Origin: Chthonomonadales bacterium | GTDB taxonomy: Bacteria > Armatimonadota > Chthonomonadetes > Chthonomonadales > CAJBBX01 | Assembly (NCBI GenBank): GCA_038229495.1 | Contig: JBBROJ010000007.1 | Span: 3,263-67,262 of the forward strand | Length of the DNA: 64,000 nucleotides | Reading direction: 5' to 3' | Shown here: positions 9,952-25,503 of the stretch, one piece after another | Numbering within the stretch: the stretch's first letter is position 1 | Layout: each line of letters begins with the position of its first letter | The notes under the pieces: model-generated | The model's input: only the letters and a program-made list of their open reading frames with translations | Told to the model about the DNA's origin: nothing | Databases searched by the model: none | Program-made: the position numbers and the translations under genes

Positions 9952-10091
9952 AAGGTTAGAACGGCTCCTGATGGCAGCGGTATGCCACCATTATGAAAGG
10001 CCGGCATTGTGAAAGGCCGGCATTATGAAAGCCCGGCAAGGGCTTGCCGGGCTGCCGGGTTGCAGTGTGACGAGCGGGATAATGGTGCGCG

Positions 10092-12196: not shown

Positions 12197-14017
12197 CTAC
12201 TCCGAGAAATAGTGCCAAGTGTAGCCGAGGTCTATGGACTTGCCAGGTTCCAAAGCGACCTTCCAATCGATTCGACCCACGCCGTGGAAGCGCCACCACC
12301 ATCCAGGCCAGTTGTACCAGCGCCACCAGTACGGAAGCTCATCCGGCGCGACTATGCTGCCCTCCTCAAAGGAGTTCACCATCTTTGTCTTGCCATCGTG
12401 ATCGGCTGTATCGACCTGCCCCAGAACGTAGCGGGCGACCTCCACATCGACCGGCTGCGTCCGGTAGTTTGACAGGTTTATCGTTCCCGCCAGATCGATC
12501 CTCGCAAGATGAACTCCGTGCCACTCAAGCGCATTGGGCATGCGCCCGGTCTCCCGCTCCGTCTTCTTCACCTTGATGTCTATAGCCGTGGTAATCGGCA
12601 GGTCCACTGTGCCGCCTACCGAGGTGTAGGTCATCATTGCCTGCGCCATCACCTTTTCGCCATTCAGAATCAGGGCGGGCGAGGTGGTGAGCGGATAGGC
12701 GTTTTTGTTCTCCAGACGCAGCTTGTGCATCACCTTCGGCGCAGCCATGAGCCGCGCAATCTCCGCCTGCTGATCGCTGTTCAGGCTGCCGCGCATCTCG
12801 GGCGGCGGCCCAAAGTGAAGCTCCAGGGTGTAAACATCCCGATATTTAAGCGTAAACTCGGTGACGGGAATCACCATCCGCTCGCCGCGCTTCAACGACA
12901 CATGTTTTACAGTGAAGACATAGAGGTCTTCGTTCTTCTCGGAGCCGCTTAGCTCTGGCCCGGCTTCGACGGGCGGTGGCTGTCCACCGCCTCCGCCTCC
13001 CCCGCCTAAGCCTCCGCCTCCGAACCCGCCCATTCGTTCCCCTGCCCGCGCGCTCTGCGACATGATGGCATTGGACATGGCGAATCCGGATCGCGAGTCC
13101 GTCTGGAAATACTGGCCCAGCTGCGCGAACGTCTGCTGGATTCCAATGGGATCGGGCGTGTCCTTGAAAAAGAAGGAAGGTACGCCGATGACGAGATTGG
13201 CTGTTACATCGTCCAGATCGACCATCTCATTGACAAGAGTCGCGTGCATCTTGATTGCCGCCGTTCCCTTGCCGTCGATAGTGATCCGGTAGCTCGGAAT
13301 CCACCGGATGCCCTTTTGCAGATAGATCATGCCGACCGCTGCATTTGGCGCGGGCTTCTGATTCTGCCACTCCAGTTTGAGCGTCAGCAGATTGCGGAAT
13401 TCCTCGCCGGTTACCTTTCCGCTATATGGCCCCTTGAACGCTACGCTTCGAATCCGCTCGATAGGCTTGACGGCAACCCCCTCGGTGGTCTTCAGCAGAA
13501 TCACGCTGCCCTTCTCCGGGAGAGGCTGGGGAGCGTTCGGCGGATTCGTCGCGTCGAGCTCCTGCGACGTGCGCGTGGGAAACCCCACAACCTGCGCCGG
13601 GTAGGACTTGCCGTCCACTTCGGTGACGACGACGGACGCGCCCGGATTCGCTTCCAACAGCTCGCGGAGAGTTAGGCCGGTGCGGCTGACCTGTACGCGG
13701 CGCGGGCTCGCCCTGACCGCGCTCAACTTGACGCCGCGCTCGGCTGAATAGGGCCAGAAGGTTCCAATCACGGGCGTCGGAAGGTAGTCCATCTGGACGT
13801 TTCCCGAAGCGTCTGTAGGCATCCGTCCCTCGTGGAGCATGAACGCATGCCCATCCTTGAAGACCGTAATCTCCCTGACGGGCATCTTCGCGAGCGCGCT
13901 GAGCGGCGCTGCCCCCTGGCCCGACGCGGTATCCATACAGACTGCACAGAACGATAGGACTGGGACGACGGAAAATCCCCGCGTGATAATCTTCACGTGC
14001 ATGTAGCTCTCCTCCAA
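12197..14017 (-). CDS. DUF4139-like (mucoidy-inhibitor MuiA-like) secreted protein with internal poly-Gly tract
   Basis: 606 aa with a signal-like N-terminus (from M at 14002). It has the general DUF4139 architecture, and GGFGGGGLGGGGGGGG lies mid-protein. Family assignment is from memory. Confidence 0.5.
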   Translation of the reverse strand: MEESYMHVKIITRGFSVVPVLSFCAVCMDTASGQGAAPLSALAKMPVREITVFKDGHAFMLHEGRMPTDASGNVQMDYLPTPVIGTFWPYSAERGVKLSAVRASPRRVQVSRTGLTLRELLEANPGASVVVTEVDGKSYPAQVVGFPTRTSQELDATNPPNAPQPLPEKGSVILLKTTEGVAVKPIERIRSVAFKGPYSGKVTGEEFRNLLTLKLEWQNQKPAPNAAVGMIYLQKGIRWIPSYRITIDGKGTAAIKMHATLVNEMVDLDDVTANLVIGVPSFFFKDTPDPIGIQQTFAQLGQYFQTDSRSGFAMSNAIMSQSARAGERMGGFGGGGLGGGGGGGGQPPPVEAGPELSGSEKNEDLYVFTVKHVSLKRGERMVIPVTEFTLKYRDVYTLELHFGPPPEMRGSLNSDQQAEIARLMAAPKVMHKLRLENKNAYPLTTSPALILNGEKVMAQAMMTYTSVGGTVDLPITTAIDIKVKKTERETGRMPNALEWHGVHLARIDLAGTINLSNYRTQPVDVEVARYVLGQVDTADHDGKTKMVNSFEEGSIVAPDELPYWWRWYNWPGWWWRFHGVGRIDWKVALEPGKSIDLGYTWHYFSE

Positions 14018-14242
14018 TGATAATTCTGCTTCTTAGACGAGCCGGGCGGGTAACTGGTCACCTCCGGGACCGTTCTCCGCGCGGACGTCTCAATTACGAG
14101 ACGGTGGCTACAGGATTGAGCGCGTTTTGCACTGCATTTGAAAATAGTAGAAAGATTGTGACCTATTTATGTGTAAAACACCCGTTTTGAACGGCTATAT
14201 ATATGAGGGCGATTAAAACAAGGCGCAAGGTGAGGTGCAAGA

Positions 14243-14704
14243 ATGGCAGTAATGGAGCCCCCAATCCCAGACACGATTTGTATTCAGCAGGGTCCGCCTA
14301 ATAGGCCGGATTCAATATGGGATGTACGCGAACGGCTGGAGGAGAACTTCCGGCGCGTCGAGCGGCTGCTGACCGAAATGGAGATGCAGCAGGTTCCGAA
14401 GATGAGGCTGGCGGCCGCTGCCGAGATGAGGCAGCACATCGCCCTGGCGGAGAAAACATTGGAGACGGCCGCGCGCGCCGAAGCGGTGCGAGCGTTCGAG
14501 GAGATCGTGCTAACCGTCCTGTCGGAGGCGAGCGCTAAGGTGCTGCGCAGGGTATTGGAGGCGTTGAAAGCGAGGGGTGCACATGGAAACGATCACGCCG
14601 TACCTGACGTCACTCTGTCGGAAGATAGAGGCGAAGTTCGGCAGCGAGATTTGGGACGACAGGATGCTGAGCTATCGGAGCAGTCCGGAGAGCTTTGCGG
14701 ATGA
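14243..14704 (+). CDS. Coiled-coil hypothetical protein in the terminase small-subunit position
   Basis: 153 aa, directly upstream of and overlapping TerL. Assignment is by position only, with no recognisable motif. Confidence 0.35.
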   Translation: MAVMEPPIPDTICIQQGPPNRPDSIWDVRERLEENFRRVERLLTEMEMQQVPKMRLAAAAEMRQHIALAEKTLETAARAEAVRAFEEIVLTVLSEASAKVLRRVLEALKARGAHGNDHAVPDVTLSEDRGEVRQRDLGRQDAELSEQSGELCG

Positions 14705-16145
14705 GGTGCTCGGCTCGCGCTGGTGGTCGCGGCAGCGTTCGGTGGCCGGGCTGGTAGCTAAGCACCGGCGAACGGCAGTCAAATCCGCGAATGGAGTCGG
14801 CAAGACCTATCTGGCGGCCGATCTGGCGCTCTGGTTTCTCTACACGCACCGCCCGTCGATTGTCCTGACGACTGCCCCTACGTGGAGGCAGGTGCGGCAT
14901 CTGCTCTGGGAAGAGATTCGAAAGCGGATGCGCTCCGCGCGGACGCCGCTGCCGGGAACGCTGCTCAATACGCGAATCTCGGCGGGTGAAGGCTGGTTCG
15001 CGCTGGGGCTGGCGACCGACGATCCGGTCAAGTTTCAGGGGTTTCACGCGGAGAACCTGCTCATTATCTTTGACGAGGCGAGCGGCATCCCCGATCCAAT
15101 CTGGGATGCGGCCGAGGGAGTGGCGGTCGGAAGGCATAACCGGATTCTTGCAATTGGCAACCCGCTGACGACATCGGGCCGGTTCTACAAGCTGTTCCGG
15201 TCTGGGTCCGCGTGGAGAAGAGAGACGATTAGCGCCCTGGAGCATCCGAATGTGACCGGAGAAGAGCCGCCGATTCCCGGCGCGGTAACCCCGGAGGCAA
15301 TTTCCGAGCGAGTCGCGGAGTGGTGCCAAGAAGAGGTCGTTGGGTCGTTGGGTGATGGGGTCGTCGGGGACGGCGCATCTGTAATGCCGGGAGCGTTCGT
15401 GTGGCAAGGGCGGCGGTACAAGCCCAACAACCTATTTAAGGCGCGCGTTTTGGGCGAGTTCCCGGATTCGGAGGATGACACACTCATTCCGCTACCCTGG
15501 ATAGAGGCGGCCGTCGAGCGAGAACTACCACCTCTATCCACGGAAGGGTGCAAGCGCGTGGCGGCGGATGTTGCGCGATTCGGCAGCGACTGTACGGTAA
15601 TCGGAATGCGAATCGGGCCGCGCGTGGTGAGGATGGATGTCGTGCGGGGAGCGGACCTAATGGAGGTGGCGGGCCGTATTATGAAGCTCGCCTATGAGGA
15701 GCATCCTGACAGCATTGCCGTGGACGCAATCGGCCTGGGCGCGGGAGTCGTGGACCGCCTGGTGGAACTGAACCTGGGCGAAGTCGAGGCGGTAAACGTC
15801 GCGAATACGGCGAATAATTCACAACGATTCGCAAACCGGCGCGCCGAGCTCTACTGGTCGCTGCGCGAGCGATTCCGAATTGGCAACATTTCGATTCCGC
15901 GCGATGATGCGCTCGTGGAGGAATTGTCCGGGCTGCGATATTTGCACACGTCCAGGGGCCAGATTAGAATGGAGAGCAAAGAGGATATGAAACGGCGTGG
16001 CATGCATTCGCCGGACAGGGCCGACATGCTGGCGATGCTTTTCGATTCGAGCGCGGAAGTATTGGCCGCGATTCATCCGGGCCGCGCGGCGAGGACGGAA
16101 GATTCGCCGTCAGCGCAATTCCGCTCCGAAATGAACGGCTGGTGA
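14577..16145 (+). CDS. terL: Phage terminase large subunit
   Basis: 522 aa. It has Walker A (KSANGVGKTY), Walker B (LLIIFDEASGI) and a C-terminal RNaseH-like nuclease region (RVAADVARFGSD...DAIGLG). The start is uncertain (14577, 14583 or 14664). Confidence 0.88.
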   Translation: MHMETITPYLTSLCRKIEAKFGSEIWDDRMLSYRSSPESFADEVLGSRWWSRQRSVAGLVAKHRRTAVKSANGVGKTYLAADLALWFLYTHRPSIVLTTAPTWRQVRHLLWEEIRKRMRSARTPLPGTLLNTRISAGEGWFALGLATDDPVKFQGFHAENLLIIFDEASGIPDPIWDAAEGVAVGRHNRILAIGNPLTTSGRFYKLFRSGSAWRRETISALEHPNVTGEEPPIPGAVTPEAISERVAEWCQEEVVGSLGDGVVGDGASVMPGAFVWQGRRYKPNNLFKARVLGEFPDSEDDTLIPLPWIEAAVERELPPLSTEGCKRVAADVARFGSDCTVIGMRIGPRVVRMDVVRGADLMEVAGRIMKLAYEEHPDSIAVDAIGLGAGVVDRLVELNLGEVEAVNVANTANNSQRFANRRAELYWSLRERFRIGNISIPRDDALVEELSGLRYLHTSRGQIRMESKEDMKRRGMHSPDRADMLAMLFDSSAEVLAAIHPGRAARTEDSPSAQFRSEMNGW

Positions 16146-16206
16146 ATTCTGCGAACCATGAGAAACGTGAGAGAAGACAATGCGTGTAAAACGCATGTCT
16201 GGTGGA

Positions 16207-16245
16207 CCTTCGGCCAAACGTCCTTCGGCCAAACGTCCTCCGGAC
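16207..16245. repeat. 2.5 copies of the 15-mer CCTTCGGCCAAACGT
   Basis: Read directly from the intergenic region after terL. An adjacent 8-bp hairpin (GTCCTCCG...CGGAGGAC) follows. Confidence 0.85.
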
Positions 16246-16336
16246 GGTAAGACATTGTTGCATTCGGAGGACGCTTGACGGTGCATCCGTCCCACCGGAC
16301 GCCGATTTACTCCGTTGGGCCGACGTCAGAATCATG

Positions 16337-16365
16337 TTGACTGTGCCCCTCCCGTCTGCTACACT
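16337..16365 (+). promoter_or_regulatory. Sigma70-type promoter TTGACT-17 nt-TACACT
   Basis: Hexamers and 17-nt spacer read directly. It lies about 80 nt upstream of the DUF3467 gene. Confidence 0.55.
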
Positions 16366-16443
16366 GATCACAGCGGGAGGGCCCTTCTCTAAGCGGATGC
16401 CCTTTCCAATTCGCTTCGAATCAAACCGAGGAGAGGGGTTCAA

Positions 16444-16713
16444 ATGAACGACGACGATTTCATCCGCCTGCCGGAATACTACACGGACTCGGTCAATTTC
16501 ATGACCAACATTTACGGCTTCACGCTGGAGTTCGGCGCTACCCAGGCGCAGGAACAGCCGCCGAGACCTCTCGTCCGCATCAAAATGAGCCCGCAGCACG
16601 CCAAGATCATGAGCCTGCTGCTTCGCAAGAACGTGCAGGAGTACGAAAAGCGAATCGGCACCGTCATCCTTCCTGAGGGGCTCTACCAGGAGCTGGGCAT
16701 TCAGGACGAATAG
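16444..16713 (+). CDS. DUF3467 domain protein
   Basis: 89 aa. YTDSVNFMTNIYGFTLEFG...RIKMSPQHAKIMSLLLRKNVQEYEKRIG matches my memory of DUF3467. Confidence 0.6.
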   Translation: MNDDDFIRLPEYYTDSVNFMTNIYGFTLEFGATQAQEQPPRPLVRIKMSPQHAKIMSLLLRKNVQEYEKRIGTVILPEGLYQELGIQDE

Positions 16714-16790
16714 CGAGGCGTGAGGCGTGAGGCGTGAGGCGAGTAGCGCGGGGCGTGAGTTAAGAGTCGAGAGTTAAGAGTCGAGAGTTT
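16713..16790. repeat. Heptamer array (GYGAGGC x about 7) followed by 2 x 14-mer TAAGAGTCGAGAGT
   Basis: Starts on the stop codon of the DUF3467 gene. GAGTCGAGAG is the reverse complement of the CTCTCGACTC units at 22133-22153. Confidence 0.9.
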
Positions 16791-16792
16791 TA

Positions 16793-16824
16793 GAGGGGCC
16801 GCTTCCATATGGAAGCGGCCCCTC
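16793..16824 (+). terminator. Perfect 14-bp GC-rich hairpin GAGGGGCCGCTTCC-ATAT-GGAAGCGGCCCCTC
   Basis: Read directly. The trailing CGCTTT is only weakly U-rich. Confidence 0.55.
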
Positions 16825-16828
16825 CGCT

Positions 16829-18118
16829 TTGGGCGGCCATTCGAGGTCGCGGGAGACAGGTATGGCGCTCACAGACGAATTGAATGGCAGCTACCAGCGG
16901 GCCGCAGAGAAGACAGCGCCGGAACAGTTCCGCGAGGAGATGACCGCGTGGGACGCCGTGTTCCGTCAGGCGTTTCGGATTCCACCCTACAATCCTGACG
17001 GCCTGTTATCGTCGCGCGGCATTGAGACCTACGACAAGATGATGGCCGATAGTCAGATTCGGGCCTCGATCAATACAAAACGTTACGCCTTACTCGCCCG
17101 GCCGTGGCAGGTTTTCCCATCCGTAAAGGACCAGGCGCACCCGGAATACCGCGCGGCATGCGAGGCGCGGGACTTCGTCGAGGATGCGCTTCGGAGCCTG
17201 CGCGGGCCGGACGGATCGGGCCGCGAATTTCGCCACACCCTTTTCGAGATGATGTCGGCGTTCTATCGCGGGTTCTCGCTGGCCGAGATGATCTGGCGGG
17301 TGGAGGAGCGGGGACGATGGCGGGGCAGGTATACGCTCGGGGCCATCAAGTTCAAGAATCCGAAGCAGATCGGCTTCGAGCTGGACGATTACCTCAACGT
17401 GCAGGCGGTGACGAGCCTCACCCCGACCGGCGGCCTGGTGAGTGTGCCCCGCGGCAAGTGCTTGCTCTATGTTTATAACCAGCGGGACGAGCTACCCTAC
17501 GGAGACAGCGATCTGCGCGCGGTCTACAAGCACTACATGAGCAAGCTGCGAATCATCGAGTTTTGGAACCTGCGATTGCAGCGGTTCGGCATTCCCTTCG
17601 CCTTTGCGAGCGTGGGGAACGGATCGGATACGCAATCCAGTAAGGTCAAGGAAATTCTGAGGGACTTCCAACAGGAATCGAGCGCGGTTTTCCCCACGAA
17701 CGTCAAGCCGGAGCTTCTCGAGCCGCGCAGCGATACCGGCGATCCGTTCCTGAGCGCATTGGAGTGGCACAACCAGCAGATCGCCGTCGGCATCTTGCTG
17801 CAAACGTTAACATCAACCGAAGGCAAGCGATCTGGCTCCATGGCGCTGGGGCGGGTGCATTTCGACATCCTTCTGTTCGCGCTGGAGTGCATGAAGCAGG
17901 ATATTGAAGCTACGGTGAACGCGCAGATAGTGCGCCCGCTGATCGACTACAACTTCGGGCATGGGCTGTACCCCTCGTTCTCGCTGGGGAATCTGGACGA
18001 AAAGGACCTACCCAAGCTGGCTCAGGCGGTGGACGTACTGCTAAGACACCAGGTCGTGGGGCCGAAGGAGCCGGTTCTGCGGGAGATGTTCAATCTGCCC
18101 GCGGCGGAAGAGGGATAG
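16829..18118 (+). CDS. Phage portal protein (DUF935 / Mu gp29-like)
   Basis: 429 aa, located after terL. N-terminal region ETYDKMMADSQIRASINTKRYALLARPWQV is typical of DUF935 portals. The likely start is M at 16862. Confidence 0.75.
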   Translation: MGGHSRSRETGMALTDELNGSYQRAAEKTAPEQFREEMTAWDAVFRQAFRIPPYNPDGLLSSRGIETYDKMMADSQIRASINTKRYALLARPWQVFPSVKDQAHPEYRAACEARDFVEDALRSLRGPDGSGREFRHTLFEMMSAFYRGFSLAEMIWRVEERGRWRGRYTLGAIKFKNPKQIGFELDDYLNVQAVTSLTPTGGLVSVPRGKCLLYVYNQRDELPYGDSDLRAVYKHYMSKLRIIEFWNLRLQRFGIPFAFASVGNGSDTQSSKVKEILRDFQQESSAVFPTNVKPELLEPRSDTGDPFLSALEWHNQQIAVGILLQTLTSTEGKRSGSMALGRVHFDILLFALECMKQDIEATVNAQIVRPLIDYNFGHGLYPSFSLGNLDEKDLPKLAQAVDVLLRHQVVGPKEPVLREMFNLPAAEEG

Positions 18119-18120
18119 AA

Positions 18121-18240
18121 GTCGTTGGGTCGCCCCCGGCCCCCAATTCTGGGGGAGTATGCGGGTGGTTGGGTCGTTGGGATGCCCCCCGGCCCCCAAT
18201 CCTGGGGGAGTATGCGGGTGGATGGGCCGTTGGGCGGGCG
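18121..18240. repeat. Two about 50-bp direct repeats, each containing GGGTCGTT-type octamers plus the hairpin GGCCCCCAATYCTGGGGGAGTATGCGGGTGG
   Basis: Copy 1 is 18121-18168 and copy 2 is 18169-18221. The array begins 2 nt after the portal stop. ORF 18169..18384 over it looks spurious. Confidence 0.9.
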
Positions 18241-18327
18241 TTTAACACTCATTCCAGTGTAGAAGCGGCGCAAGCGGAGGCCAGGACGTCTCCGATTGTC
18301 TACAGGCGAAGCGGCGCAACTACAATG

Positions 18328-18353
18328 AGGGAGGCCGCAATAGCGGCCTCCCT
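18328..18353. terminator. Hairpin AGGGAGGCCGC-AATA-GCGGCCTCCCT (bidirectional terminator candidate)
   Basis: An 11-bp perfect stem lying 36 nt beyond the stop of the minus-strand PEP-CTERM gene. Confidence 0.55.
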
Positions 18354-18388
18354 TGAGTTTACTCGTGAATTTGGAGCGCTCTGAATGT

Positions 18389-18958
18389 CTATGCGCGCTT
18401 ACGACGGATCAAGTACGCAGCGCCCGGAACGAGCATTCCGGCCATCAGGCCCAGCGTGCCCGGCTCAGGAACGCTGTTCGCGACCTGGGTTACGCTGATG
18501 TCGTCGATGCGAAGGTAAGACGGATCTTGTCGAAAGCCGAACTTCAGATTCGTGCTGGCGCCGGTGGCAGCGACATTATAGGAATACTCGGTGTAACCTC
18601 CCGCAGGCAGCGTATCAGGGCTGCCGGTACGGTCGTCAATAATGGATCCATCCCACGAAACTTGAAATTCGCGGGTGCCGCCGTCGACCTGCAGCCATAG
18701 GTCGATCAGGTACGACGCTCCAGGCGCGGTGACGATGTTCTGCTCGATAAACCCGAGGGAACCGACCGGGCCAAATTGTGCGGCCCAAAGCCCCGTATGC
18801 ACAGGAGAGGTGACGACGCTCGTAAATCCCATATTGCCGGAACGGACCCATCCTGAGAAGTCGCCTGTTTCGAAATCGCCATTTACGACCTGTGCTCGCG
18901 CCGCAAGAGGCGCGATTGCCAGGGCTATTAGCCCAAGAACTACGACCGGATTCTTCAT
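18389..18958 (-). CDS. PEP-CTERM sorting-domain protein with CBM/DUF642-like beta-sandwich
   Basis: 189 aa with a signal peptide and NGDFETGDFSGW. The C-terminal VPEPGTLGLMAGMLVPGAAYLIRRKRA is a PEP-CTERM anchor. Confidence 0.85.
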   Translation of the reverse strand: MKNPVVVLGLIALAIAPLAARAQVVNGDFETGDFSGWVRSGNMGFTSVVTSPVHTGLWAAQFGPVGSLGFIEQNIVTAPGASYLIDLWLQVDGGTREFQVSWDGSIIDDRTGSPDTLPAGGYTEYSYNVAATGASTNLKFGFRQDPSYLRIDDISVTQVANSVPEPGTLGLMAGMLVPGAAYLIRRKRA

Positions 18959-19116
18959 CTGATATACACTCCTGAATCTGAAAAATGAGTAGTCTGCTGG
19001 CAGTCAGCAGACTCAACCGTTCAGAGTGCATATCAGCAATCATCATGCCAGAAAGGGGCGTTGGGGACCAAACAGGTACATGCGCGGGCGTGGCTTCACG
19101 CTCGGGAGCGTGCTTT

Positions 19117-19893
19117 TCAGGTGTCCTTACGAGGTGTTTCCAGCGGCTCCCATTCTAGGAGCCGCTTCCCTTTTTCGTGTTTGAATGCTCTGCCGGAGGT
19201 GTCGCCCGTAATGTGGATTACCTCAAAGCCGTCGTGATCGAGCAGCAGCGCCGCTTCGAGGGCGCGGGCAAGGTCGGGGGCGCTTGTTCGCGGATCGATC
19301 GCTTTGGCAGGATCGTGCTTTGCGTGCCAATCCTCTCTCGATACCGGCAGGAAGAGGCGAAGAACAAGAATAGGGAGATGGTGGACGCGATGGGCGAATC
19401 TACATGCCTCTTCGCCCATCCACTTGGTCAGACCGTATACGCTTAGCGGCTCGGGCGTCACCGTTTCACTGTCATATGCGCCGCTCAGGAGATCATGGCC
19501 ATCGTGGACCGACAGACTGCTCGTATAGACTGCGCGGCCGATGCCCGCCTGTACGGCAGCCTCCATCGCGAGATGGACACCCTTCACGTTTACGTCGTGC
19601 GCGGCGGCAATATTCTGGATGCCGCCGGGCTGCGCACTGCCCATCGCCATGTAAAGTAGGAGGTCCATGCCCTCCACTGCTCTTTTGAGCGAATCGAAAT
19701 CCGTCACTTCGCCCAGAATAAAGTCCTCTGTGATGGATTCCCAGACCCTTTTAGCGGAAGGCGACCGGTCATACACACGCAGTTGAAATCGCTCTTGCAG
19801 CAGCGGGAGCACAAGGCCGGCGACGTATCCGCTGCCGCCGACCACGAGAAGTTTCGGGCGGCTTTCGGATGGCTGGTCGTTTTGCATTCCCAT
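19117..19893 (-). CDS. NAD-dependent epimerase/dehydratase family protein
   Basis: Rossmann motif LLVVGGSGYVAG and an SDR-like body. The start is chosen at M17 (19893), which is preceded by GAGGGGA. The ORF is open to 19941. Confidence 0.75.
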   Translation of the reverse strand: MGMQNDQPSESRPKLLVVGGSGYVAGLVLPLLQERFQLRVYDRSPSAKRVWESITEDFILGEVTDFDSLKRAVEGMDLLLYMAMGSAQPGGIQNIAAAHDVNVKGVHLAMEAAVQAGIGRAVYTSSLSVHDGHDLLSGAYDSETVTPEPLSVYGLTKWMGEEACRFAHRVHHLPILVLRLFLPVSREDWHAKHDPAKAIDPRTSAPDLARALEAALLLDHDGFEVIHITGDTSGRAFKHEKGKRLLEWEPLETPRKDT

Positions 19894-19940
19894 GAACGGA
19901 TTCCCCTCGACCATTTTACTTGTTCGCCAGGAGGAACACA

Positions 19941-20969
19941 ATGGATTCTGAACGCCTCAAATGGAAATTTACAAATGACGGGGCTTTCGTGGAACGGGAG
20001 TGCCTGCTCTTCGAGGCAGGCGAATACCCCGACCGCGGCGTTACGATCACACCCGCAGATCTACTCGCCATCGCGAAGAACTCGCCGGAATCGATACCGG
20101 TCAGGGTGGAGCACCTTGCGCGATCTCCGTTCGATGGAGCGCTTGGCGCTGTAATGCGCCTGCGGGCTGTTGGGAACCGACTCTGGGGAACCCTCCGTCA
20201 GCCTGCGGAGGCCTGGCAGTTCGTACAGAGAGCGGGCGCGAAAGCCCTGTCGGTCGCTATCGACACCGGTGCTACGAAAGGGTGGCGGCTGGCAGAGGTG
20301 TCATTCGTGTGCTTGCCTCGCGTGGCGAGCGCGCAGGTTTTTAACGACAACGGCAATGACAACGCCAATCTAGGAGCGCAGCCGTCATGCCGCGCTCTAT
20401 TTCATTCGTCTCCACTCTTTGGTCAGGGTGAGACGGAAACAGAGGAGGAGAGAGACATGGTAAGCGTGCGGCAGTTTGCCGATGGCTTGATGCTGTATGT
20501 GCGCAGCATGCTGGGAGCAGAGGCTGGTAATACGGAGGAGTTTTCCCGCGCGTTGTCCGCCGAGCGCACACAACTCTCCACGGAGCGAGACATGCTCCAA
20601 AGTGAGCGGGTCGGCCAGAAGATCGAAGAGATGAAACGGCGCGGCCTTATCCGCGCCACGGATGAGACGCAGGAGCTGGCAAAGTCGTTGCTGCTATTCG
20701 GTGTGACAAATGTCGTACAATTTAATAACGAACCTGTCAGCATTGATCGGCTGTTCATGCGCTTTCTGGAAGCCAACGGCCCCGTCGTTCCTATGGGCGA
20801 GGTGGCAGCGGCCGTTCCCGAAATGCACGGCGCCTCGGACCGCTTGATTGCCCTCGCGGGCGAAGCGTCGCGGCGGGACGGCCTTCCCTATGTTACGGCT
20901 TTCTCGCGGGTAAGCGCCGCGCATCCGGAGCTCGCCCGTGCCGCCCGCGAGGAGAGCATCAACGGATAA
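19941..20969 (+). CDS. Putative prohead protease-scaffold fusion (Mu gpI-like N-terminal domain, coiled-coil C-terminal half)
   Basis: The N-terminus (FEAGEYPDRGVTITPADLLAIAKNSPESIPVRVEH) resembles Mu-like prophage protein I. The C-terminal half is acidic and coiled-coil. It sits between the portal and capsid genes. Confidence 0.5.
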   Translation: MDSERLKWKFTNDGAFVERECLLFEAGEYPDRGVTITPADLLAIAKNSPESIPVRVEHLARSPFDGALGAVMRLRAVGNRLWGTLRQPAEAWQFVQRAGAKALSVAIDTGATKGWRLAEVSFVCLPRVASAQVFNDNGNDNANLGAQPSCRALFHSSPLFGQGETETEEERDMVSVRQFADGLMLYVRSMLGAEAGNTEEFSRALSAERTQLSTERDMLQSERVGQKIEEMKRRGLIRATDETQELAKSLLLFGVTNVVQFNNEPVSIDRLFMRFLEANGPVVPMGEVAAAVPEMHGASDRLIALAGEASRRDGLPYVTAFSRVSAAHPELARAAREESING

Positions 20970-20996
20970 CGGGAAATCAACCACCCGTTTTGATTG

Positions 20997-21087
20997 AGGC
21001 ACAGAGACACAGAGTTGGAAGGAAGCTGATTCGAGCTTAAGGTCAGGTTACACTCCTCCTTGCTCTTCTCTGTGTCTCCCTGTCTCT
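20997..21087. repeat. Inverted repeat GAGACACAGAG (21004-21014) / CTCTGTGTCTC (21068-21078) built from CAGAGA-type short repeats
   Basis: Read directly. It lies between the scaffold gene and the DUF2190 gene. Confidence 0.8.
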
Positions 21088-21131
21088 AGCGAAGCGGGTG
21101 GTAAATCGCATCTTTTTCGAAGGAGAATGAA

Positions 21132-21548
21132 ATGGCGAAACAGACGCCTCTTCTGGTAAAGTCGTTTGCGGCCGACACGGCCATTGCGAATGCGAACGTA
21201 TGCGTGGTCATGTCGGGAGCCAATGCTGGTAACGTGACGCTTCCGGGCGGCGCGCTGGCAACCAAGTTTGCCGGGATCACATGGGAGCCCGTGCAGTCCG
21301 GCTCCACGGCCAATGAGATCGCCGTGCAGGTCGCGGGAATTGCGCAGATCCAGACGGACGGCTCCGCGCTTATCGCCGCGGGTGACTACGTGGCGATTGC
21401 CAATGCGTCGGGACAGATAAAGACGGTCGTGCCTGCCACCGGCGCCGTTCTGCGGCAGGTAGTGGGAATCGCGGTGAGCGGCGCGACCAACACAGCCGGC
21501 CTGCTCGTTGACGTGCTGCTTCAACCGGCAATCTATATCGGCGCATAG
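21132..21548 (+). CDS. DUF2190-family head decoration / capsid cement protein
   Basis: 138 aa, Ala/Gly/Val-rich beta protein. GDYVAIANASGQIKTV and VVGIAVSGATNTAGLLVDVLL are typical of DUF2190. It lies immediately before the capsid gene region. Confidence 0.6.
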   Translation: MAKQTPLLVKSFAADTAIANANVCVVMSGANAGNVTLPGGALATKFAGITWEPVQSGSTANEIAVQVAGIAQIQTDGSALIAAGDYVAIANASGQIKTVVPATGAVLRQVVGIAVSGATNTAGLLVDVLLQPAIYIGA

Positions 21549-21711
21549 ACGAGAACGGCGTCACGCTGCGTCACAAATGGCGGACTCTAGCGTCTCACGT
21601 AATGAAGGTCGAGTACGGAGTCGAGAAAAGGAATGCTCGAATCGAATCTCGAATAGTACGTAGAATCGCGATACTGTGGCGAACTGGTCGCCACGACAAG
21701 GGAGTTCCGAT

Positions 21712-21984
21712 ATGGTCAAGAAGATCGTTGCATTGATGGCAGCGGGTGCATTCGCCGCGTCCCTCTCAACTGTTGCCGTCGCACAAAAGGACAAGCACAA
21801 GACGGCAAAGCACAATCCAACCTGTCCCGTCTGCAAGATGGAGTTCTCCTCAACGAAGGACGACAAGAATCCCGTAGCCGTAAAGGCAGGAAAGAAGACT
21901 GTCTACTGCTGCTCCGGCTGCGACATGAAGGACTGGAAGAAAGACAAGAAGGGCACCCTGCTTCTGCCCAAAGAGAAGAAGTAA
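21712..21984 (+). CDS. Secreted small YHS/TRASH-like metal-binding protein
   Basis: Signal peptide MVKKIVALMAAGAFAASLSTVAVA. CPVCKM...YCCSGCDMKDW resembles the YHS/TRASH pattern CPVCGM...Y.FCS..C. The start is at M13, preceded by AAGGGAG. Confidence 0.5.
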   Translation: MVKKIVALMAAGAFAASLSTVAVAQKDKHKTAKHNPTCPVCKMEFSSTKDDKNPVAVKAGKKTVYCCSGCDMKDWKKDKKGTLLLPKEKK

Positions 21985-22011
21985 GCGTTCGTTCATTTTA
22001 GACCCGAGCAT

Positions 22012-22046
22012 TCACAATGGACCGCCAATTTGGCGGTCCATTGTGA
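22012..22046 (+). terminator. Perfect 15-bp hairpin TCACAATGGACCGCC-AATTT-GGCGGTCCATTGTGA
   Basis: Read directly, 28 nt after the stop at 21984. There is no clear U-tract. Confidence 0.5.
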
Positions 22047-22111
22047 TTCGGCGAAGATAAGAAATAACCCATCGACCATGATCCGCCCGGCGCTAACCCG
22101 CCGGGATTTCT

Positions 22112-22160
22112 CACGACTCACGACTCACGACTCTCGACTCACGACTCTCGACTCACGACT
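22112..22160. repeat. Seven tandem heptamers CWCGACT ending 1 nt before the capsid gene Shine-Dalgarno
   Basis: The units read CACGACT x3, CTCGACT, CACGACT, CTCGACT, CACGACT. GAGGAG follows at 22161-22166 and the ATG is at 22173. Confidence 0.92.
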
Positions 22161-22172
22161 GAGGAGACTTCC

Positions 22173-23192
22173 ATGCCAACCCTTGGACAGATTCACATCG
22201 ATCAGGCGCTCACCAACATTTCCGTGATGTACCGCAATGAGACCTACATCGGCGATCAGGTCCTTCCCACCGTGCCCGTTGCCCAGCGCTCCGACAAGTA
22301 CTTCCTCTACAAAAAGGAGGACTTCCTCAGCCCCAGCGGCTCCAGCGGAACCGGCGCGCTCAACTCACTCCGCCGCCCCGGATCCGAAGCCGCCGAGATC
22401 GACTATGGCGTCTCCACAGCGAGCTACTTCGCGGAAGAGTACGCCTATCGCGGCATTGTCACCGATGCGGAAGTCGCAGTCGCGGACAATCCCATGCAGC
22501 CGGACATGGACCAGACCGTTCAGCTTACCGAGCGGCTGATGCTCGATAATGAGGTGTCTGTTGCCACCATCGTATGCAAGCGCGCCAACTATCCGTCTTC
22601 CAACCGAGTGGCGCTCACCGGTGGAGGCACTGGAACTTCATGGGCGCAATATACAAGCGCCAACTCCACTCCGTTCACCGACATTAAGAACGGTAAGCTG
22701 GCCGTTATCAAAGGAATCGCACGGGAAGCGAACGCGCTGCTCCTCGGTGTCGATACCGCGCGAACGCTTGCAGACCATCCAAACGTGAAAGACCTGGTTA
22801 AGTACGTCCATCAGGATGCGCTCACAATGAGTGGGCTGCCCAAAGTGCTTCGCGGTATGACCGTCATTGAAGGCGCGACGCAGAAGAACACCGCCGCCGA
22901 GGGAGCTTCCTATACCGGCGCAAATGTGTGGCAGGCCGACGACGGAACAGGATTCGCGCTCCTGTACTACCGGAATCCCAATCCGACGCTCCGTTCCGTC
23001 AGTCTCGGCTACACCTTCGATGCGCCGGACGACGCCACTGGCGCGCGTGGCTATGCAGTTCGGCGTTGGCGAGAAGAGAAGCGCAAAGGCTCCATGATTG
23101 AGGTCGCGTTCCTTCGAGATTGGCGTCTCATCGCCGTGGATGGCTCCGGTCTGGCGCTTGGAGGCTATCTGGTCAGCAGCGCGACTCTCTAA
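22173..23192 (+). CDS. Phage major capsid protein (HK97-fold, capsid protein E-like family)
   Basis: 339 aa. N-terminus QALTNISVMYRNETYIGDQVLPTVPVAQRSDKYFLYKKEDF matches my memory of this MCP family. Its position after the decoration and scaffold genes also fits. Confidence 0.7.
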   Translation: MPTLGQIHIDQALTNISVMYRNETYIGDQVLPTVPVAQRSDKYFLYKKEDFLSPSGSSGTGALNSLRRPGSEAAEIDYGVSTASYFAEEYAYRGIVTDAEVAVADNPMQPDMDQTVQLTERLMLDNEVSVATIVCKRANYPSSNRVALTGGGTGTSWAQYTSANSTPFTDIKNGKLAVIKGIAREANALLLGVDTARTLADHPNVKDLVKYVHQDALTMSGLPKVLRGMTVIEGATQKNTAAEGASYTGANVWQADDGTGFALLYYRNPNPTLRSVSLGYTFDAPDDATGARGYAVRRWREEKRKGSMIEVAFLRDWRLIAVDGSGLALGGYLVSSATL

Positions 23193-23268
23193 AGACCCAA
23201 CGGCATAACGATGACGGCCGGCCAGGATAGCTTGCGGCCGGCCGTCAAACAAACAGGAGGGAACGAGA

Positions 23269-23565
23269 ATGCCCGACTACGCCGCGGTATCAGTCTTTAG
23301 CCCCCGTACGCGGCGATGGGAGCTCATGAGCGACAGGGGCCGAGTGATTGTGTTCGATACAGCGGAGGTAGCCTGGAACTGGCTGCCTCTGCTCGGAGGC
23401 GGGCGTACCTATGCATCGGACGCCCGTTCTCTTTCTCTCTGCTTTCTGGAGCTGTCCGGCGTCGCTCCCAATCGCGCGCGGGTCGTAACGCACTACATGC
23501 CCGAAGAGCGCGCGCCATGGCGGGGCCATATCATTTGGTCCGAATGGTGGGACAGACAATTGTAA
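23269..23565 (+). CDS. Hypothetical protein (phage module)
   Basis: 98 aa ORF with an AGGAGGGAACGAG SD region upstream. No family recognised. Confidence 0.45.
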   Translation: MPDYAAVSVFSPRTRRWELMSDRGRVIVFDTAEVAWNWLPLLGGGRTYASDARSLSLCFLELSGVAPNRARVVTHYMPEERAPWRGHIIWSEWWDRQL

Positions 23566-23663
23566 GTGCTGAGTGCTGAGTGATGAGTGCTGAGTAGGGA
23601 GCAACCTCCGTGTTGCGCCGTGTTCTTGACGTTCTCTCAGCACTCGGCACTCAGCACTCAGCG
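23566..23663. repeat. Complementary heptamer arrays GTGCTGA x4 (23566-23593) and CTCAGCA x4 (23636-23663) flanking a 42-nt loop
   Basis: Starts on the nucleotide after the stop codon. The loop contains AGGGAGCAACCTCCGTGTTGCGC (23596-23618), the exact reverse complement of 63321-63343. Confidence 0.92.
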
Positions 23664-23681
23664 CTAAAGAGGGAGGTTCCC

Positions 23682-24071
23682 ATGATTGCATTCACTTACG
23701 ACGCCGGCACGCTCGTTGGCCAGGTGCGGCTGTACTCGGGAGATACCGATGCTGACGGCTTGAACCGCGTGGGCGGCGATCGCACGCGTACCGACGATGA
23801 GGTCGCCCTGCTGCTTGCTCAGCACGACAATAATCCACGACTGGCCGCCGCCGCCCTGCTCGAATCCCGCGCGGCGGAGTTCGCGGGCCTCTCGACCAAC
23901 ATCACGCAGGGCACGCTGCGGCAGGACTACCGTCAGCGGAGTCTTCGCCTTCTGCAAGCGGCGGAGATGCTGCGGGCATCGGCTCGCGCTTCGGCGCTGC
24001 CAGTCTGGAATCCGCCCACCCGGGCCGCCCCATTTACGGCCGGAGAAGGTGGCACAATGGATGATTGGTGA
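23682..24071 (+). CDS. Hypothetical protein in head-tail adaptor position
   Basis: 129 aa from the ATG at 23682, preceded by GAGGGAGG. The upstream part of ORF 23610.. crosses the repeat and looks spurious. The adaptor call is by gene order only. Confidence 0.45.
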   Translation: MIAFTYDAGTLVGQVRLYSGDTDADGLNRVGGDRTRTDDEVALLLAQHDNNPRLAAAALLESRAAEFAGLSTNITQGTLRQDYRQRSLRLLQAAEMLRASARASALPVWNPPTRAAPFTAGEGGTMDDW

Positions 24072-24082
24072 GGAGGGCGTTC

Positions 24083-24152
24083 AGGTATCAGGTTCCAGGT
24101 ATCGGCCTCACCTGCCACCTGTCACCTGACACCTGTTACCTGACACCTGAAC
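24083..24152. repeat. CAGGTWY x3 followed by 6 x YACCTGW heptamers (mutually complementary), ending at the SD of the next gene
   Basis: Read directly. GGAGG is at 24156-24160 and the ATG at 24169. GGTGTCAGGTG at 57007-57030 is the complement of these units. Confidence 0.9.
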
Positions 24153-24168
24153 ACCGGAGGACAACACG

Positions 24169-24588
24169 ATGGCGTTTCCCAAGAGCCCTTTAACTAGAGA
24201 TGATTTGGACCGGACTCCAACACGCTCCGGCAACCTGCCTGGAACGATTAACTCTGGTCTCATCTTCCTGGAGTACGTGAATATCGAGCGCAAGATCGCA
24301 AGCGTGTGGACCGCTGTCGTTTCAAATTTGCCCGCGACGTTCGAGCCGATCAGCACGGACCGCAGGCTGAAGCTTGAGACGTGGACTCACAAGCCCATCT
24401 TCTGCGTCTGGCTTCCGCCGGATGCGCCGATTCAGGACGGCGATCGCATTATCCGTTGCGATGGCTCGCACTGGTATCTGCGGGGGGCTGCAATTGCCTC
24501 GCCGGATCGTACTCACATCGCCCTGGTGGCCGAGGCCGCCACCGAAGATAACCTGTTTGCCGCCCGGACCGCTTCCGAACCACCGTAG
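24169..24588 (+). CDS. Hypothetical protein in head-closure/connector position
   Basis: 139 aa ORF with a good SD. Assignment is by position only. Confidence 0.4.
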   Translation: MAFPKSPLTRDDLDRTPTRSGNLPGTINSGLIFLEYVNIERKIASVWTAVVSNLPATFEPISTDRRLKLETWTHKPIFCVWLPPDAPIQDGDRIIRCDGSHWYLRGAAIASPDRTHIALVAEAATEDNLFAARTASEPP

Positions 24589-24614
24589 GTCTCCGCGGGC
24601 CGGCAGCTGGAGGC

Positions 24615-24872
24615 ATGAAAATGAACATGCATGAACGAGGAGAGATGGGCCAGATGCGCGACTGCATCCAGCAGCTTGCGGTCGAAATTGCGCGATTGAG
24701 CCAGGCGGTCGAGCCGCTTGTGCGGATGCAGCAGGACCAGGACAGCCTGCGCGACCGAGTGGCCCAACTAGAAGGATTCCGCGCCGCGCTGCTCTGGCTT
24801 TCGGGCCTGAGCGTAATCAGCGCACTGTTTCGTTACCTGGTCTCATTTTGGATGGGAGGAACCGACCGATGA
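24615..24872 (+). CDS. Small coiled-coil protein with C-terminal TM helix
   Basis: 85 aa. LLWLSGLSVISALFRYLVSFW is a predicted TM segment. Holin-like topology is possible but not supported by any motif. Confidence 0.4.
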   Translation: MKMNMHERGEMGQMRDCIQQLAVEIARLSQAVEPLVRMQQDQDSLRDRVAQLEGFRAALLWLSGLSVISALFRYLVSFWMGGTDR

Positions 24873-25078
24873 ATAGAATTTTGCGAAGCCTGCGCGCTCC
24901 GCCGTCGCTGCTCATAGCCTACGCCGTACTCCGTGCCGACGCAGTGGCCGCGTTCAATGACCCCGCCGTCAGCAACGCGCTGGATCGTTTCAAAGCCGAT
25001 CCCGCCATCGCACCGCTTGTTCCGCGAATCTCGTCGGAATGGCGCGCGGTCGAGGATGCCCTGGAGCAGATGCGTTAA
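24869..25078 (+). CDS. Small hypothetical protein
   Basis: 69 aa from M8 of ORF 24848... An ATGA start/stop overlap with the preceding gene suggests coupling. Confidence 0.35.
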   Translation: MNRILRSLRAPPSLLIAYAVLRADAVAAFNDPAVSNALDRFKADPAIAPLVPRISSEWRAVEDALEQMR

Positions 25079-25152
25079 GACGTGCGAGACTGCCAATACC
25101 GGAAAGTTGGCCTTAAGCTTCAAGAATTATGCTTATTGAGAGGAGGTGAATT

Positions 25153-25503
25153 ATGCCCGACGGATTCGCAAAAGTGAGGCGCGGAGAGAAGCGACCGCTC
25201 TATGGGCAGGTGTCGGTGGCGACGGGAACGCTCACCATCGCTGCCAGCCCTGCCCCGAGCTGCACTGTGTACGATTCAAATGGAACAGCAGTCGCGGGGC
25301 TGTCGGCGGTGGCCGTTACAGCGTTCGACGCCGCCGCCCTCGCCGCGCCGCAAATCTGGCTCGATCTGGATACGACTACACCAGCGGACCTTGCGCCGGG
25401 TTTCTATACGCTCGTCTTCAAGCTGAATGCAACCGGCTCCGATGGAATCGCCCGCATTCTGGAGCCAGCCATAGAGTTTCAGGTGCTGGACGTACGGGCG
25501 TAA
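25153..25503 (+). CDS. Hypothetical Ig-like/beta-sandwich protein (last gene of the phage-like module)
   Basis: 116 aa, preceded by GAGAGGAGG. Beta-rich composition; no family recognised. Confidence 0.4.
   Translation: MPDGFAKVRRGEKRPLYGQVSVATGTLTIAASPAPSCTVYDSNGTAVAGLSAVAVTAFDAAALAAPQIWLDLDTTTPADLAPGFYTLVFKLNATGSDGIARILEPAIEFQVLDVRA

Follow-up and report, generated by a model that had tools for sequence, protein, structure and literature searches.

Within a 64,000-nucleotide window of the genome of a Chthonomonadales bacterium (Armatimonadota; NCBI GenBank assembly GCA_038229495.1, contig JBBROJ010000007.1, positions 3,263 to 67,262 of the forward strand), positions 14243-25503 encode a set of phage-type genes for building and filling a virion head. 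On balance, we regard this set as a domesticated siphophage head-and-packaging module that is inherited with the chromosome in the order Chthonomonadales and is neither a prophage nor a mobile satellite, a reading to which we assign a probability of roughly 0.58. Judged from its genes, the module would be sufficient in kind to assemble and mature a prohead, to package DNA and to close the portal, and it appears to hold nothing for a tail. If expressed, it would yield sealed, tail-less, DNA-filled heads.

The gene string was derived from a six-frame listing of open reading frames (ORFs), codon-position GC content and comparison with relatives. On the plus strand, it comprises an ORF in the position of a small terminase (TerS), the large terminase TerL, DUF3467, the portal protein, a protease-scaffold (family C2), a cement protein (family C6), a Cys-rich protein, the major capsid protein (MCP) and the small proteins C12, C5, C9, TM85, ORF69 and C8; two minus-strand genes, coding for a PEP-CTERM protein and an epimerase, are located between the portal and C2 genes. 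The GC content of the module equals that of its flanks. The comparison material consists throughout of metagenome-assembled genomes (MAGs) and metagenome contigs, of which approximately 20 kb per related locus were read in addition to the 64-kb window. Related loci that were fetched carry L numbers; among these, L023, L028 and L029 are uncultured phages, L024 is a section of the complete chromosome OZ251990.1, and L017 and L018 are two independent assemblies of one population. Ratios of nonsynonymous to synonymous substitution (dN/dS) are pairwise Nei-Gojobori estimates.

Head and packaging genes

The original prediction, made from the bare sequence, had described a complete-looking capsid and packaging gene set in which all phage-like ORFs are intact. 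This description is borne out by Pfam, PHROG, hidden Markov model (HMM) and fold matches, and the window ORFs are full length relative to their homologues; the predicted TerL with Walker motifs, DUF935-like portal, protease-scaffold candidate, DUF2190 decoration protein, HK97-type MCP and conserved ORF in TerS position were all recovered as follows.

The large terminase TerL (14577..16145, plus strand) matches phrog_2 at E 2.8e-41 and carries the Walker A motif NGVGKT at residue 72 and the Walker B motif LLIIFDEA at residue 161. The longest ORF begins at 14577, and a publicly annotated version of the same protein, of 493 aa, begins at 14664. Among 30 homologues (49-72% identity), the acidic residues of both the ATPase and the nuclease are invariant or nearly so; both Walker motifs and the nuclease aspartates are retained down to 49% identity, and dN/dS is ~0.2. 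Overlapping the TerL start, a coiled-coil-rich protein of 153 aa (at the longest start) is encoded at 14243..14704 on the plus strand, to which the TerS role is assigned by position only. It has neither a Pfam nor a PHROG match, and it is kept directly upstream of TerL in L002, L019 and L027 (45-73% identity; 70% versus L027). Further upstream, the plus-strand element at 14173..14211 is a candidate operator or promoter of the module, to judge from its sequence and place. It consists of the inverted repeat AAAACACCCGTTTT, followed by TATATATAT and GAGGG, and occurs once in the window; a near-identical block is present in L019 and a partial one in L027, in either case upstream of the TerS-position gene. 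A scan with promoter and terminator consensus sequences gave no signal above chance.

The portal protein (16829..18118, plus strand, 429 aa) is of the Mu type, matching PF06074 Portal_Mu (formerly DUF935) at E 7.9e-68 as well as phrog_113 and solved portals; its orthologues are present at 17 chromosomal loci, with a dN/dS of 0.24. The prohead protease-scaffold of family C2 (19941..20969, plus strand) combines an N-terminal domain resembling the Mu-I-type protease with a C-terminal coiled coil. Across 17 orthologues, the residues E58-H59 and S105 are invariant, and the family HMM matches an L028 protein annotated as PF10123 Mu-like_Pro_N (6.8e-7) and its L029 counterpart (6e-9). For the window protein and 16 orthologues, no direct match to PF10123 or another relevant Pfam family was obtained even at E 1, and a profile search of PDB sequences gave nothing significant; dN/dS is 0.36.

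Family C6 (21132..21548, plus strand, 138 aa) is a capsid cement or decoration protein of the DUF2190/Phage_cement_2 type. The Pfam family PF09956 is recorded only for its orthologues (L020, L021 and L029), and the family HMM matches the PF09956 cement protein of L029 at 1.9e-16 and gp73 of phage RDJL Phi 1 at 0.0026. The protein is 62-83% identical across 19 loci, with a dN/dS of 0.22. An antisense ORF at 21048-21524 was rejected as an artefact, the DUF2190 gene being the plus-strand ORF.

The MCP (22173..23192, plus strand, 339 aa) matches phrog_1005 at E 5.9e-56, and its profile matches PDB entry 3bjq at 2.4e-17 over residues 9-283. PF03864 is recorded for a homologue that is 75% identical, and the window protein itself is ~28% identical over 98% of its length to the "major capsid protein E" of Rhizobium and Roseobacter phages. 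By these matches, it is an HK97-fold capsid protein of the lambda-gpE/PF03864 type; its dN/dS is 0.14.

For the region downstream of the capsid gene, five small ORFs (starting at 23269, 23682, 24169, 24615 and 25153) had been predicted in adaptor or closure positions. All five are conserved in relatives; a sixth gene, at 24869-25078, had been missed. Of two ATGA-coupled ORFs that were claimed, one overlap was confirmed, at 24869-24872. The first of these genes (C12; 23269..23565, plus strand, 98 aa) is homologous to the gene that comes next after the MCP gene in phage L029; it is conserved at 17 loci, its HMM matches L029 11093-11509 at 5e-17, and dN/dS is 0.29. No functional lead was found for either C12 or ORF69.

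Family C5 (23682..24071, plus strand) is a protein of 129 aa from MIAFTYD, the start being fixed by alignment. It carries an invariant GGDRTRTD motif and has a helical core modelled by AlphaFold2 (AF2) with a predicted local distance difference test score (pLDDT) above 90; dN/dS is 0.33. In phage L029, its HMM matches the second gene past the MCP gene (5e-13), and a profile search of PDB sequences gave nothing significant. We infer from its place in the gene order that C5 is the adaptor.

Family C9 (24169..24588, plus strand, 139 aa) was identified by AF2 modelling and Foldseek as a head-to-tail stopper, i.e., a head-closure protein of the SPP1 gp16 type. The model was calculated as a C5+C9 concatenation and has a mean pLDDT of 75.6 with cores of ~90, the C9 core being of beta structure. 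Foldseek matches in the PDB comprise the Douge connector, PBSX XkdH, SPP1 gp16 and the T1 stopper (E 2e-5 to 7e-2, template modelling (TM) score on the target up to 0.66), and those in BFVD are head-tail joining, Gp16_SPP1 and stopper proteins (E from 4.6e-7, target TM up to 0.72); because the model was a concatenation, the stopper match was assigned to C9 by target lengths and beta content. On this model, C9 is predicted to be a gp16-like stopper.

The following two genes are coupled, the start of ORF69 overlapping the stop of TM85. TM85 (24615..24872, plus strand, 85 aa) is a module-specific protein with a coiled coil and one C-terminal transmembrane helix, hence tail-anchored; it is conserved in L001, L002, L003, L013, L019, L020 and L027, with the codon-phase pattern typical of coding sequence. 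ORF69 (24869..25078, plus strand, 69 aa) is supported by an excess of third-position substitutions in frame and is called as a gene of 69-70 aa in L017, L019 and L020.

The last gene encodes family C8 (25153..25503, plus strand, 116 aa), an immunoglobulin (Ig)-like beta-sandwich modelled with a pLDDT of 96. Its structure matches generic Ig-like folds only, with no tube or terminator protein among them, and a profile search of PDB sequences returned nothing significant; a possible relation to the head-spike fibre of the gene transfer agent RcGTA (E = 8) was dismissed as noise. C8 orthologues terminate the module at 12 loci and are the last gene in most relatives covering the module end, L020 being without a C8 homologue; dN/dS is 0.26. 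In a tblastn search of 50,697 phage genomes with C5 and C8, no match was obtained even at E 1. Among 150 clusters from an exhaustive representative search, C8 stands alone in 80 and N-terminal to C5 in 20, giving one protein of ~235 aa (for example, P0273, P0290, P0305, P0309, P0314 and P0320; L022 14675-15376 also encodes this fusion); further fusion partners are an unassigned C-terminal domain of ~230 aa, in most of the 24 longer clusters, and a GDSL esterase (P0355). Since C8 is fused to C5 in other lineages, it would probably sit on the adaptor ring at the portal vertex.

The small ORFs had also to be checked for a tail or lysis identity, and none was recognized: they are connector or novel proteins, with a stopper fold in C9 and a generic Ig fold in C8. 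TM85, a small membrane protein, is the one reservation, the holin-free status of the module being not proven. In three relatives (L007, L012 and L013), ORFs of 400-520 aa preceding C8 were considered as tail sheath, with C8 as the tube. This was rejected, as the ORFs are GDSL lipases, and the large downstream ORFs code for an ABC-F ATPase, an S9 peptidase and topoisomerase I.

Two further observations concern this region in relatives. C8-like repeats also occur in giant surface proteins (P0241, 4447 aa; P0326, 2033 aa). In addition, L027 (19331-21210) and L022 (12732-14536) contain extra structural-looking genes between the stopper region and C8 that have no equivalent in the window, namely, a 151-aa protein, a Laminin_G_3 (LamG) protein and a PF23140 "Gp80"/phrog_240 "head protein", the L022 counterpart of which also weakly matches tail-fibre PHROGs; these genes might code for head or neck fibres.

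Conservation, selection and dispersal in Chthonomonadales

The MCP was found at 14 loci in 14 GTDB species representatives, all of them Chthonomonadales/Chthonomonadaceae MAGs, at 70-83% identity. In a large protein collection, 126 MCP clusters (E <= 1e-10) form a continuum from 87% to ~30% identity on contigs of up to 4.86 Mb, and the number of TerL clusters is comparable. The common gene order is [TerS-TerL-DUF3467]-portal-(epimerase)-C2-C6-MCP-C12-C5-C9-TM85-ORF69-...-C8, and orthologues with the same order persist down to ~54% MCP identity. In every locus long enough to show it, housekeeping genes follow directly after the module, such as those for an ABC-F ATPase and an S9 peptidase (L002), topoisomerase I (L005), a sigma factor (L022), a PSCyt/PSD1 protein with flagellin/FliD/FliS (L017) or the STN and ABC-permease genes of the window (L019); a sugar kinase bounds the module in another relative. 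In L019, the closest long relative, module proteins are 58-95% identical to those of the window and the shared downstream host genes 61-85%.

For all module genes except C9, dN/dS is between 0.04 and 0.37 with dS near saturation, so that the ratios are, if anything, overestimates. Together, the species spread, these ratios, the L019 flanks and the dispersal described below point to probable vertical inheritance in one host order, under purifying selection. They also agree with the long residence in the chromosome that had been proposed: relatives keep the module at chromosomal sites, the L019 flanks diverge in step with it, and in a complete genome its parts are dispersed.

This genome, OZ251990.1, has an intact 524-aa TerL at 1.10 Mb and an MCP-C12-C5-C9-C8 block at 1.55 Mb, approximately 455 kb apart. 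Its TerL region (L024, 1,088,760-1,110,334) is located between the FtsW/MurD/MraY/MurF (dcw) cluster and the genes for carbonic anhydrase, ComEA, SelA and SelD, and the 199-aa ORF upstream of this TerL has no detectable similarity to the TerS-position protein of the window. In at least five other genomes, TerL is not found within 4-7 kb of the portal gene; L008 and L010 have the portal gene separated from that of the protease-scaffold or the MCP, and the order is permuted to MCP-cement-TerL-portal in L021. On two contigs, two different TerL homologues apparently occur together (P0164 and P0201, 28,052 bp; P0177 and P0193, 12,175 bp), which could represent duplicated or tandem modules.

These data bear on the possibility that the region is the head part of a slowly decaying prophage without present function, its conservation reflecting recent common ancestry only. 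The absence of tail, lysis and integration genes and the insertion of foreign genes into the module would suit such a remnant, as would the portal damage and the frameshifted neighbouring gene in the relatives named below. It is nevertheless a very improbable explanation, since all structural ORFs of the window are intact and the proteins have remained 58-95% identical under the low dN/dS ratios given above in spite of near-saturated dS; likewise, the TerL catalytic residues are invariant down to 49% identity, the gene order is retained to ~54% MCP identity, and even the stand-alone TerL beside the dcw cluster is intact. Frameshifted or neutrally evolving blocks in relatives had been named as the finding to look for; most orthologous blocks are intact, with dN/dS well below 1, partial decay being confined to L017/L018 and L021. 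Decay, one of three hypotheses of the original prediction, is thus disfavoured by selection and intactness. The domesticated capsid or device resembling a gene transfer agent (GTA), the first of the three, is supported by conservation, purifying selection, dispersal and the stop of phage homology at the connector.

Several observations weigh against a domesticated head-and-packaging module. The L017/L018 portal (6641-7417) is without its C-terminal ~160 aa and that of L021 (13099-14282) is split into two frames, which may be lineage-specific decay or rearrangement, and the Y-family polymerase gene in the L001 module is frameshifted. C9, the proposed stopper, has a dN/dS of 0.59 and is poorly conserved beyond close relatives. 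Position or weak homology is the basis for the roles of C12, the TerS-position protein and the adaptor, C5 having given no specific fold match. The flanks differ between most species, only L019 having the downstream flank of the window; thus, movement of the module between sites is possible, and the module could be patchy across the order. Finally, tail genes could lie elsewhere in the genome.

Phage relatives, flanking genes and non-phage residents

The relatives of the MCP in uncultured phages are 31% (L023), 41% (L028) and 45% (L029) identical, and all three phages possess a contiguous set of tail genes, which in L023 includes those for a tail terminator, a tail chaperone and a tape measure and in L028 and L029 includes large downstream ORFs of tail type. 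L029 additionally has a serine recombinase integrase and a helix-turn-helix (HTH) protein. As determined with family HMMs and phmmer, homology between L029 and the module covers the portal (17 loci), C2, C6, MCP (23 loci), C12 and C5 and ends after the second gene downstream of the MCP gene. The tail, integrase, HTH, TerS and TerL proteins of L023, L028 and L029, among them the products of at least ten downstream tail genes of L029, have no homologue in the window or at the related chromosomal loci fetched, and the window TerL belongs to a lineage other than that of these phages. Conversely, DUF3467, TM85, ORF69 and C8 have no counterpart in the three phages. Only one contig (3.3 kb) with a close MCP was found in IMG/VR, and INPHARED contains no phage above ~30% MCP identity; this scarcity speaks against an active virus.

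The head genes correspond most closely to those of siphophages (RDJL Phi 1, RHph_Y52, L028 and L029), which have the same order of portal, protease-scaffold (~365 aa), cement protein (~125-155 aa), MCP and connector genes, with sequence homology in the portal, protease, cement protein, MCP and the first two post-MCP genes. Unlike the module, the siphophage clusters run on into neck, terminator, tube, chaperone, tape-measure and distal tail genes, and L023, Roseobacter phage RDJL Phi 1 and Rhizobium phage RHph_Y52 have a Mu-F-like head morphogenesis gene without counterpart in the module. The origin of the latter would be an ancestral L029-type phage that lost all genes beyond the connector once, before the lineage diversified; the remnant would then have gained DUF3467, TM85, ORF69, C8, the epimerase and, in many lineages, a Y-family polymerase.

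Alternatively, the module could be the head half of a complete but dispersed GTA, with a co-evolving tail cluster and lysis genes elsewhere in the chromosome and ordinary tailed particles as the product. Known GTAs do keep some genes unlinked, those of RcGTA among them; the module can evidently be split over distant sites, as seen for TerL and MCP in OZ251990.1 and for the portal in L008 and L010, and the stopper, on which a tail would dock, is conserved. We consider this arrangement unlikely, given that the post-connector genes in the window, L019, L027, L002 and L017 are non-tail genes followed by housekeeping genes, and that no tail homologue was found in the ~0.5 Mb of Chthonomonadales DNA sampled. 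Furthermore, the closest phages have their tail genes immediately past the connector, which makes a single ancestral deletion more parsimonious than the movement of ~10 tail genes in each lineage.

Domestication of the head genes is also consistent with the surroundings of the module, for which Pfam and PHROG scans covered 1198 to 38668 of the window, i.e., ~14 kb upstream and ~13 kb downstream. Upstream, from 1198, Pfam assigns MEKHLA, GH15, racemase, GerM-like and AmiC-type amidase (with AMIN domain) genes, followed by an unassigned 606-aa protein; the latter (12197-14017) had been taken for a DUF4139 host protein, for which no Pfam match was obtained even at E 0.5. Downstream, to 38668, there are an STN-domain protein, an ABC permease, an aldo-keto reductase, a PIN toxin, a major facilitator superfamily (MFS) transporter, GreA and, further on, 2-oxoacid dehydrogenase E2 and E1. 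An 84-aa ORF overlaps the PIN-domain gene approximately 4.4 kb downstream of the module (29876-30555; ATGA-type junction at 30127-30130), and the two resemble a VapBC toxin-antitoxin pair.

In line with what had been noted for the flanks, the scanned range yielded no gene of tail, lysis, integrase, repressor or replication type, nor any AlpA/MerR/Stl-type regulator or primase-replicase. Integrase or recombinase domains are likewise absent from L017-L022, L024 and L027, and tail genes from the related chromosomal loci fetched. The sole tRNA gene (tRNA-Val, the only Rfam match) lies 7.6 kb past the module, beyond host genes, and no flanking tRNA or att-like site was found.

This inventory bears on a further hypothesis of the original prediction, a mobile satellite similar to those phage-inducible chromosomal islands that form capsids (cf-PICIs), which would excise, package itself in its own heads and borrow the tails of helper phages. 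Tail-less cf-PICI heads are documented, and the gene content (terS, terL, portal, protease, capsid, adaptor and connector, with neither tail nor holin) as well as the different chromosomal sites in most species are what such an element would have. We rate it as quite improbable, nonetheless. An integrase, an AlpA/MerR-type regulator and a primase-replicase are missing within 13-14 kb on either side and in annotated relatives, one genome has its module genes spread across 455 kb, the housekeeping-type genes that have entered between module genes differ by lineage, and in L019 the flanks co-diverge with the module.

Among the genes without phage counterpart in a domesticated head module, DUF3467 (16444..16713, plus strand, 89 aa; PF11950 at E 2.5e-8, as had been predicted) is the most conserved module gene, with 95.5% identity in L019 and a dN/dS of 0.04-0.15. 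It is located between TerL and the portal gene in L002, L013, L019 and L027. The NAD-dependent epimerase/dehydratase (19117..19941, minus strand; PF01370 at E 5.5e-18; true start probably 19887-19914) had been viewed as an interruption of the module. It is indeed encoded on the opposite strand; it is not specific to the window, for it occupies the same position, between portal and protease-scaffold, on the same strand in at least 10 relatives, among them L001, L006, L008, L009, L012, L014, L017, L019 and L027. With a dN/dS of 0.34, this enzyme of the sugar-nucleotide type appears as an old, conserved resident of the module.

Other insertions of cellular type are lineage-specific, including the Y-family polymerase, the GDSL lipases before C8 and the LamG and phrog_240 proteins in relatives and, in the window only, a secreted PEP-CTERM protein with a CBM_4_9-like domain (18389..18958, minus strand). 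The latter, already named in the original prediction, is recognized by its VPEP...RRKR C-terminus, its Pfam matches being weak; it has no homologue at any related locus and is, thus, a window-specific insertion. A small secreted Cys-rich protein (21712..21984, plus strand) with a signal peptide and CxxC...CCxxC motifs has an equivalently placed homologue, of 48% identity, in L019 alone and seems to be a lineage-specific passenger; the label of a YHS/TRASH protein (for 21676-21984) was not supported (TRASH E 0.25). Two ORFs at 16202-16447 and 18169-18384 coincide with tandem repeats, lack homologues and are unlikely to be genes.

A DinB-like Y-family DNA polymerase (PF00817 IMS), absent from the whole window, is encoded inside the module of seven relatives, with 47-65% identity between loci. 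Its gene is located between portal and C2 in L011 (5424-6653) and L027 (13252-14568), between MCP and C12 in L001 (11064-12656), L012 (5811-7043) and L020 (6959-8650), and downstream of C5/C9 in L004 (4717-5631) and L007 (7044-8348).

From these additional genes, a capsid function other than gene transfer might be considered, such as an anti-phage device that titrates or hijacks tails and packaging, or a particle for DNA export or storage involving TM85. DUF3467, TM85, ORF69 and C8, all without phage counterpart, the recurrence of the Y-family polymerase and the interference of satellites bearing their own capsids with helper phages are compatible with this explanation. General Pfam scans turned up no defence domain (no PADLOC or dedicated defence-family search was made), the conserved TerL nuclease and the stopper imply real DNA packaging, and the sequence does not separate this function from the best explanation; we hold it to be very unlikely.

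The spacing of the module genes also differs from that of phages, with intergenic gaps of 26-298 bp in the module and tight packing in the phage relatives. Tandem arrays of 7-8 bp units (some of 10-16 bp), called with Tandem Repeats Finder, occupy many intergenic regions of the window, L019 and L001; other Chthonomonadales loci have few of them and related phages none, and they recall the short tandemly repeated repetitive (STRR) heptamer sequences of cyanobacteria. In the window, arrays are present at 1758-1878, 9989-10038, 16715-16789, 22110-22160, 23565-23662, 24109-24155, 38702-38746 and 63233-63316. The heptamer array CTCACGA x7.3 at 22110..22160 is located directly upstream of the MCP ribosome-binding site, and L019 carries an array with a different unit, CTCAACA, at the equivalent position; CACCTGA x6.6 at 24109..24155 precedes C9. 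Between C12 and C5 (23565..23662), the inverted arrays (AGTGCTG)n (23565-23595) and (CTCAGCA)n (23636-23662) face each other ~40 nt apart and could form a ~30-bp hairpin. The same AGTGCTG/CTCAGCA family is found at an unrelated chromosomal site, L019 18030-18080. Tandem repeats of 53 and 32 bp, at 18121-18234 in the module and, 32 kb off, at 50290-50411, share the core CCCCCGGCCCCCAATCCTGGrGGAG in opposite orientation; with this G-rich core common to the 18121 and 50290 arrays, the claim that the gaps of the module are filled with repeat families seen elsewhere in the window is corroborated.

Comparison with known systems

A literature search on GTAs of Armatimonadota, Chthonomonas prophages, DUF3467 and head-only domesticated modules yielded no description of such a system. 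To our knowledge, all established GTAs are tailed, and all known tail-less producers of capsids are mobile satellites. A host-fixed, selection-maintained, head-only packaging module would, if true, be intermediate between the two and would suggest a route from a satellite or prophage to a domesticated device. Armatimonadota, a widespread and poorly studied phylum of soils and hot springs, would gain with it the first GTA-like element to be proposed there, and the module raises the testable question of whether bacteria can keep only the capsid half of a virus, relying on foreign tails, or on none, for DNA export. Four uncharacterized families (DUF3467, TM85, ORF69 and the Ig-like anchor C8) are herewith placed in a structural context. 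For prophage and virus predictors, the module is a reason for caution, as such loci would be called incomplete prophages.

More speculatively, the module might represent a new class of chromosomally fixed, tail-less viriform in Chthonomonadales and possibly in the wider Armatimonadota, which packages DNA, closes it in with a stopper and either scavenges the tails of infecting or resident phages or adsorbs via a portal-vertex collar of C8. In this joint proposal, which we regard as tentative and rather doubtful, tail scavenging would disseminate host DNA, in a domesticated parallel to cf-PICI biology, and the Ig-like C8 collar, with GDSL-esterase or lectin partners in some lineages, would replace the tail.

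As regards the connector, the module resembles SPP1 gp15/gp16 (HK97 gp6/gp7) in the gp16 stopper fold of C9 and in the helical C5 in adaptor position. It differs from them in lacking sequence similarity, and the C5-C8 Ig fusion is not a feature of SPP1 gp15. Among chromosomal loci, Nvie-Pro1 and NCAV2-Pro1 of Thaumarchaeota are putative domesticated Caudovirales loci without att sites or replication genes for which a GTA-like nature has been proposed (PMC6563490). They are likewise chromosomal virion-morphogenesis modules; however, they code for complete virions with tails and are isolated, highly divergent cases, whereas the Chthonomonadales module is tail-less and conserved across many species.

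With the GTA of Rhodobacter capsulatus (RcGTA), the module shares a phage-derived structural set without integration, replication and repressor genes, which is chromosomally fixed, order-wide, under purifying selection and partly dispersed, and which comprises TerS/TerL, portal, protease, HK97-fold MCP and adaptor/stopper proteins. In contrast, RcGTA has a full tail (tube, tape measure, distal tail and fibres) contiguous with its head genes as well as head spikes, and the module has no linked tail in any lineage; thus, it agrees with GTAs in their other testable features and not in the tail. Furthermore, RcGTA is alphaproteobacterial, and the module is from Armatimonadota and known from its genes alone. 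The head type is also unlike that of RcGTA, with a Mu-type portal, a Mu-I-type protease and a lambda-E-type MCP with cement protein.

A parallel in gene content is provided by cf-PICIs (EcCIEDL933), which have their own terS, terL, portal, protease, capsid and adaptor/connector genes and neither tail nor holin. The integrase, AlpA/MerR regulator and primase-replicase that are features of cf-PICIs are all absent from the module, which does not form a discrete island, since hundreds of kb can separate its genes; it co-diverges with its host flanks, its head genes are from another phage lineage, and it has DUF3467, TM85, ORF69 and C8 beyond the cf-PICI set. Tails normally dock on the stopper, which is conserved in the module, so that its heads most likely work like those of cf-PICIs or GTAs. 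They would export DNA and be infectious only once a phage or unlinked genes provide a tail in trans; as a less likely route, delivery might proceed by direct binding to cells through domains anchored by C8. cf-PICIs release tail-less, DNA-filled heads which later join the tails of various phages, and this joining of heads to phage tails offers the most plausible working analogy for the Chthonomonadales module.

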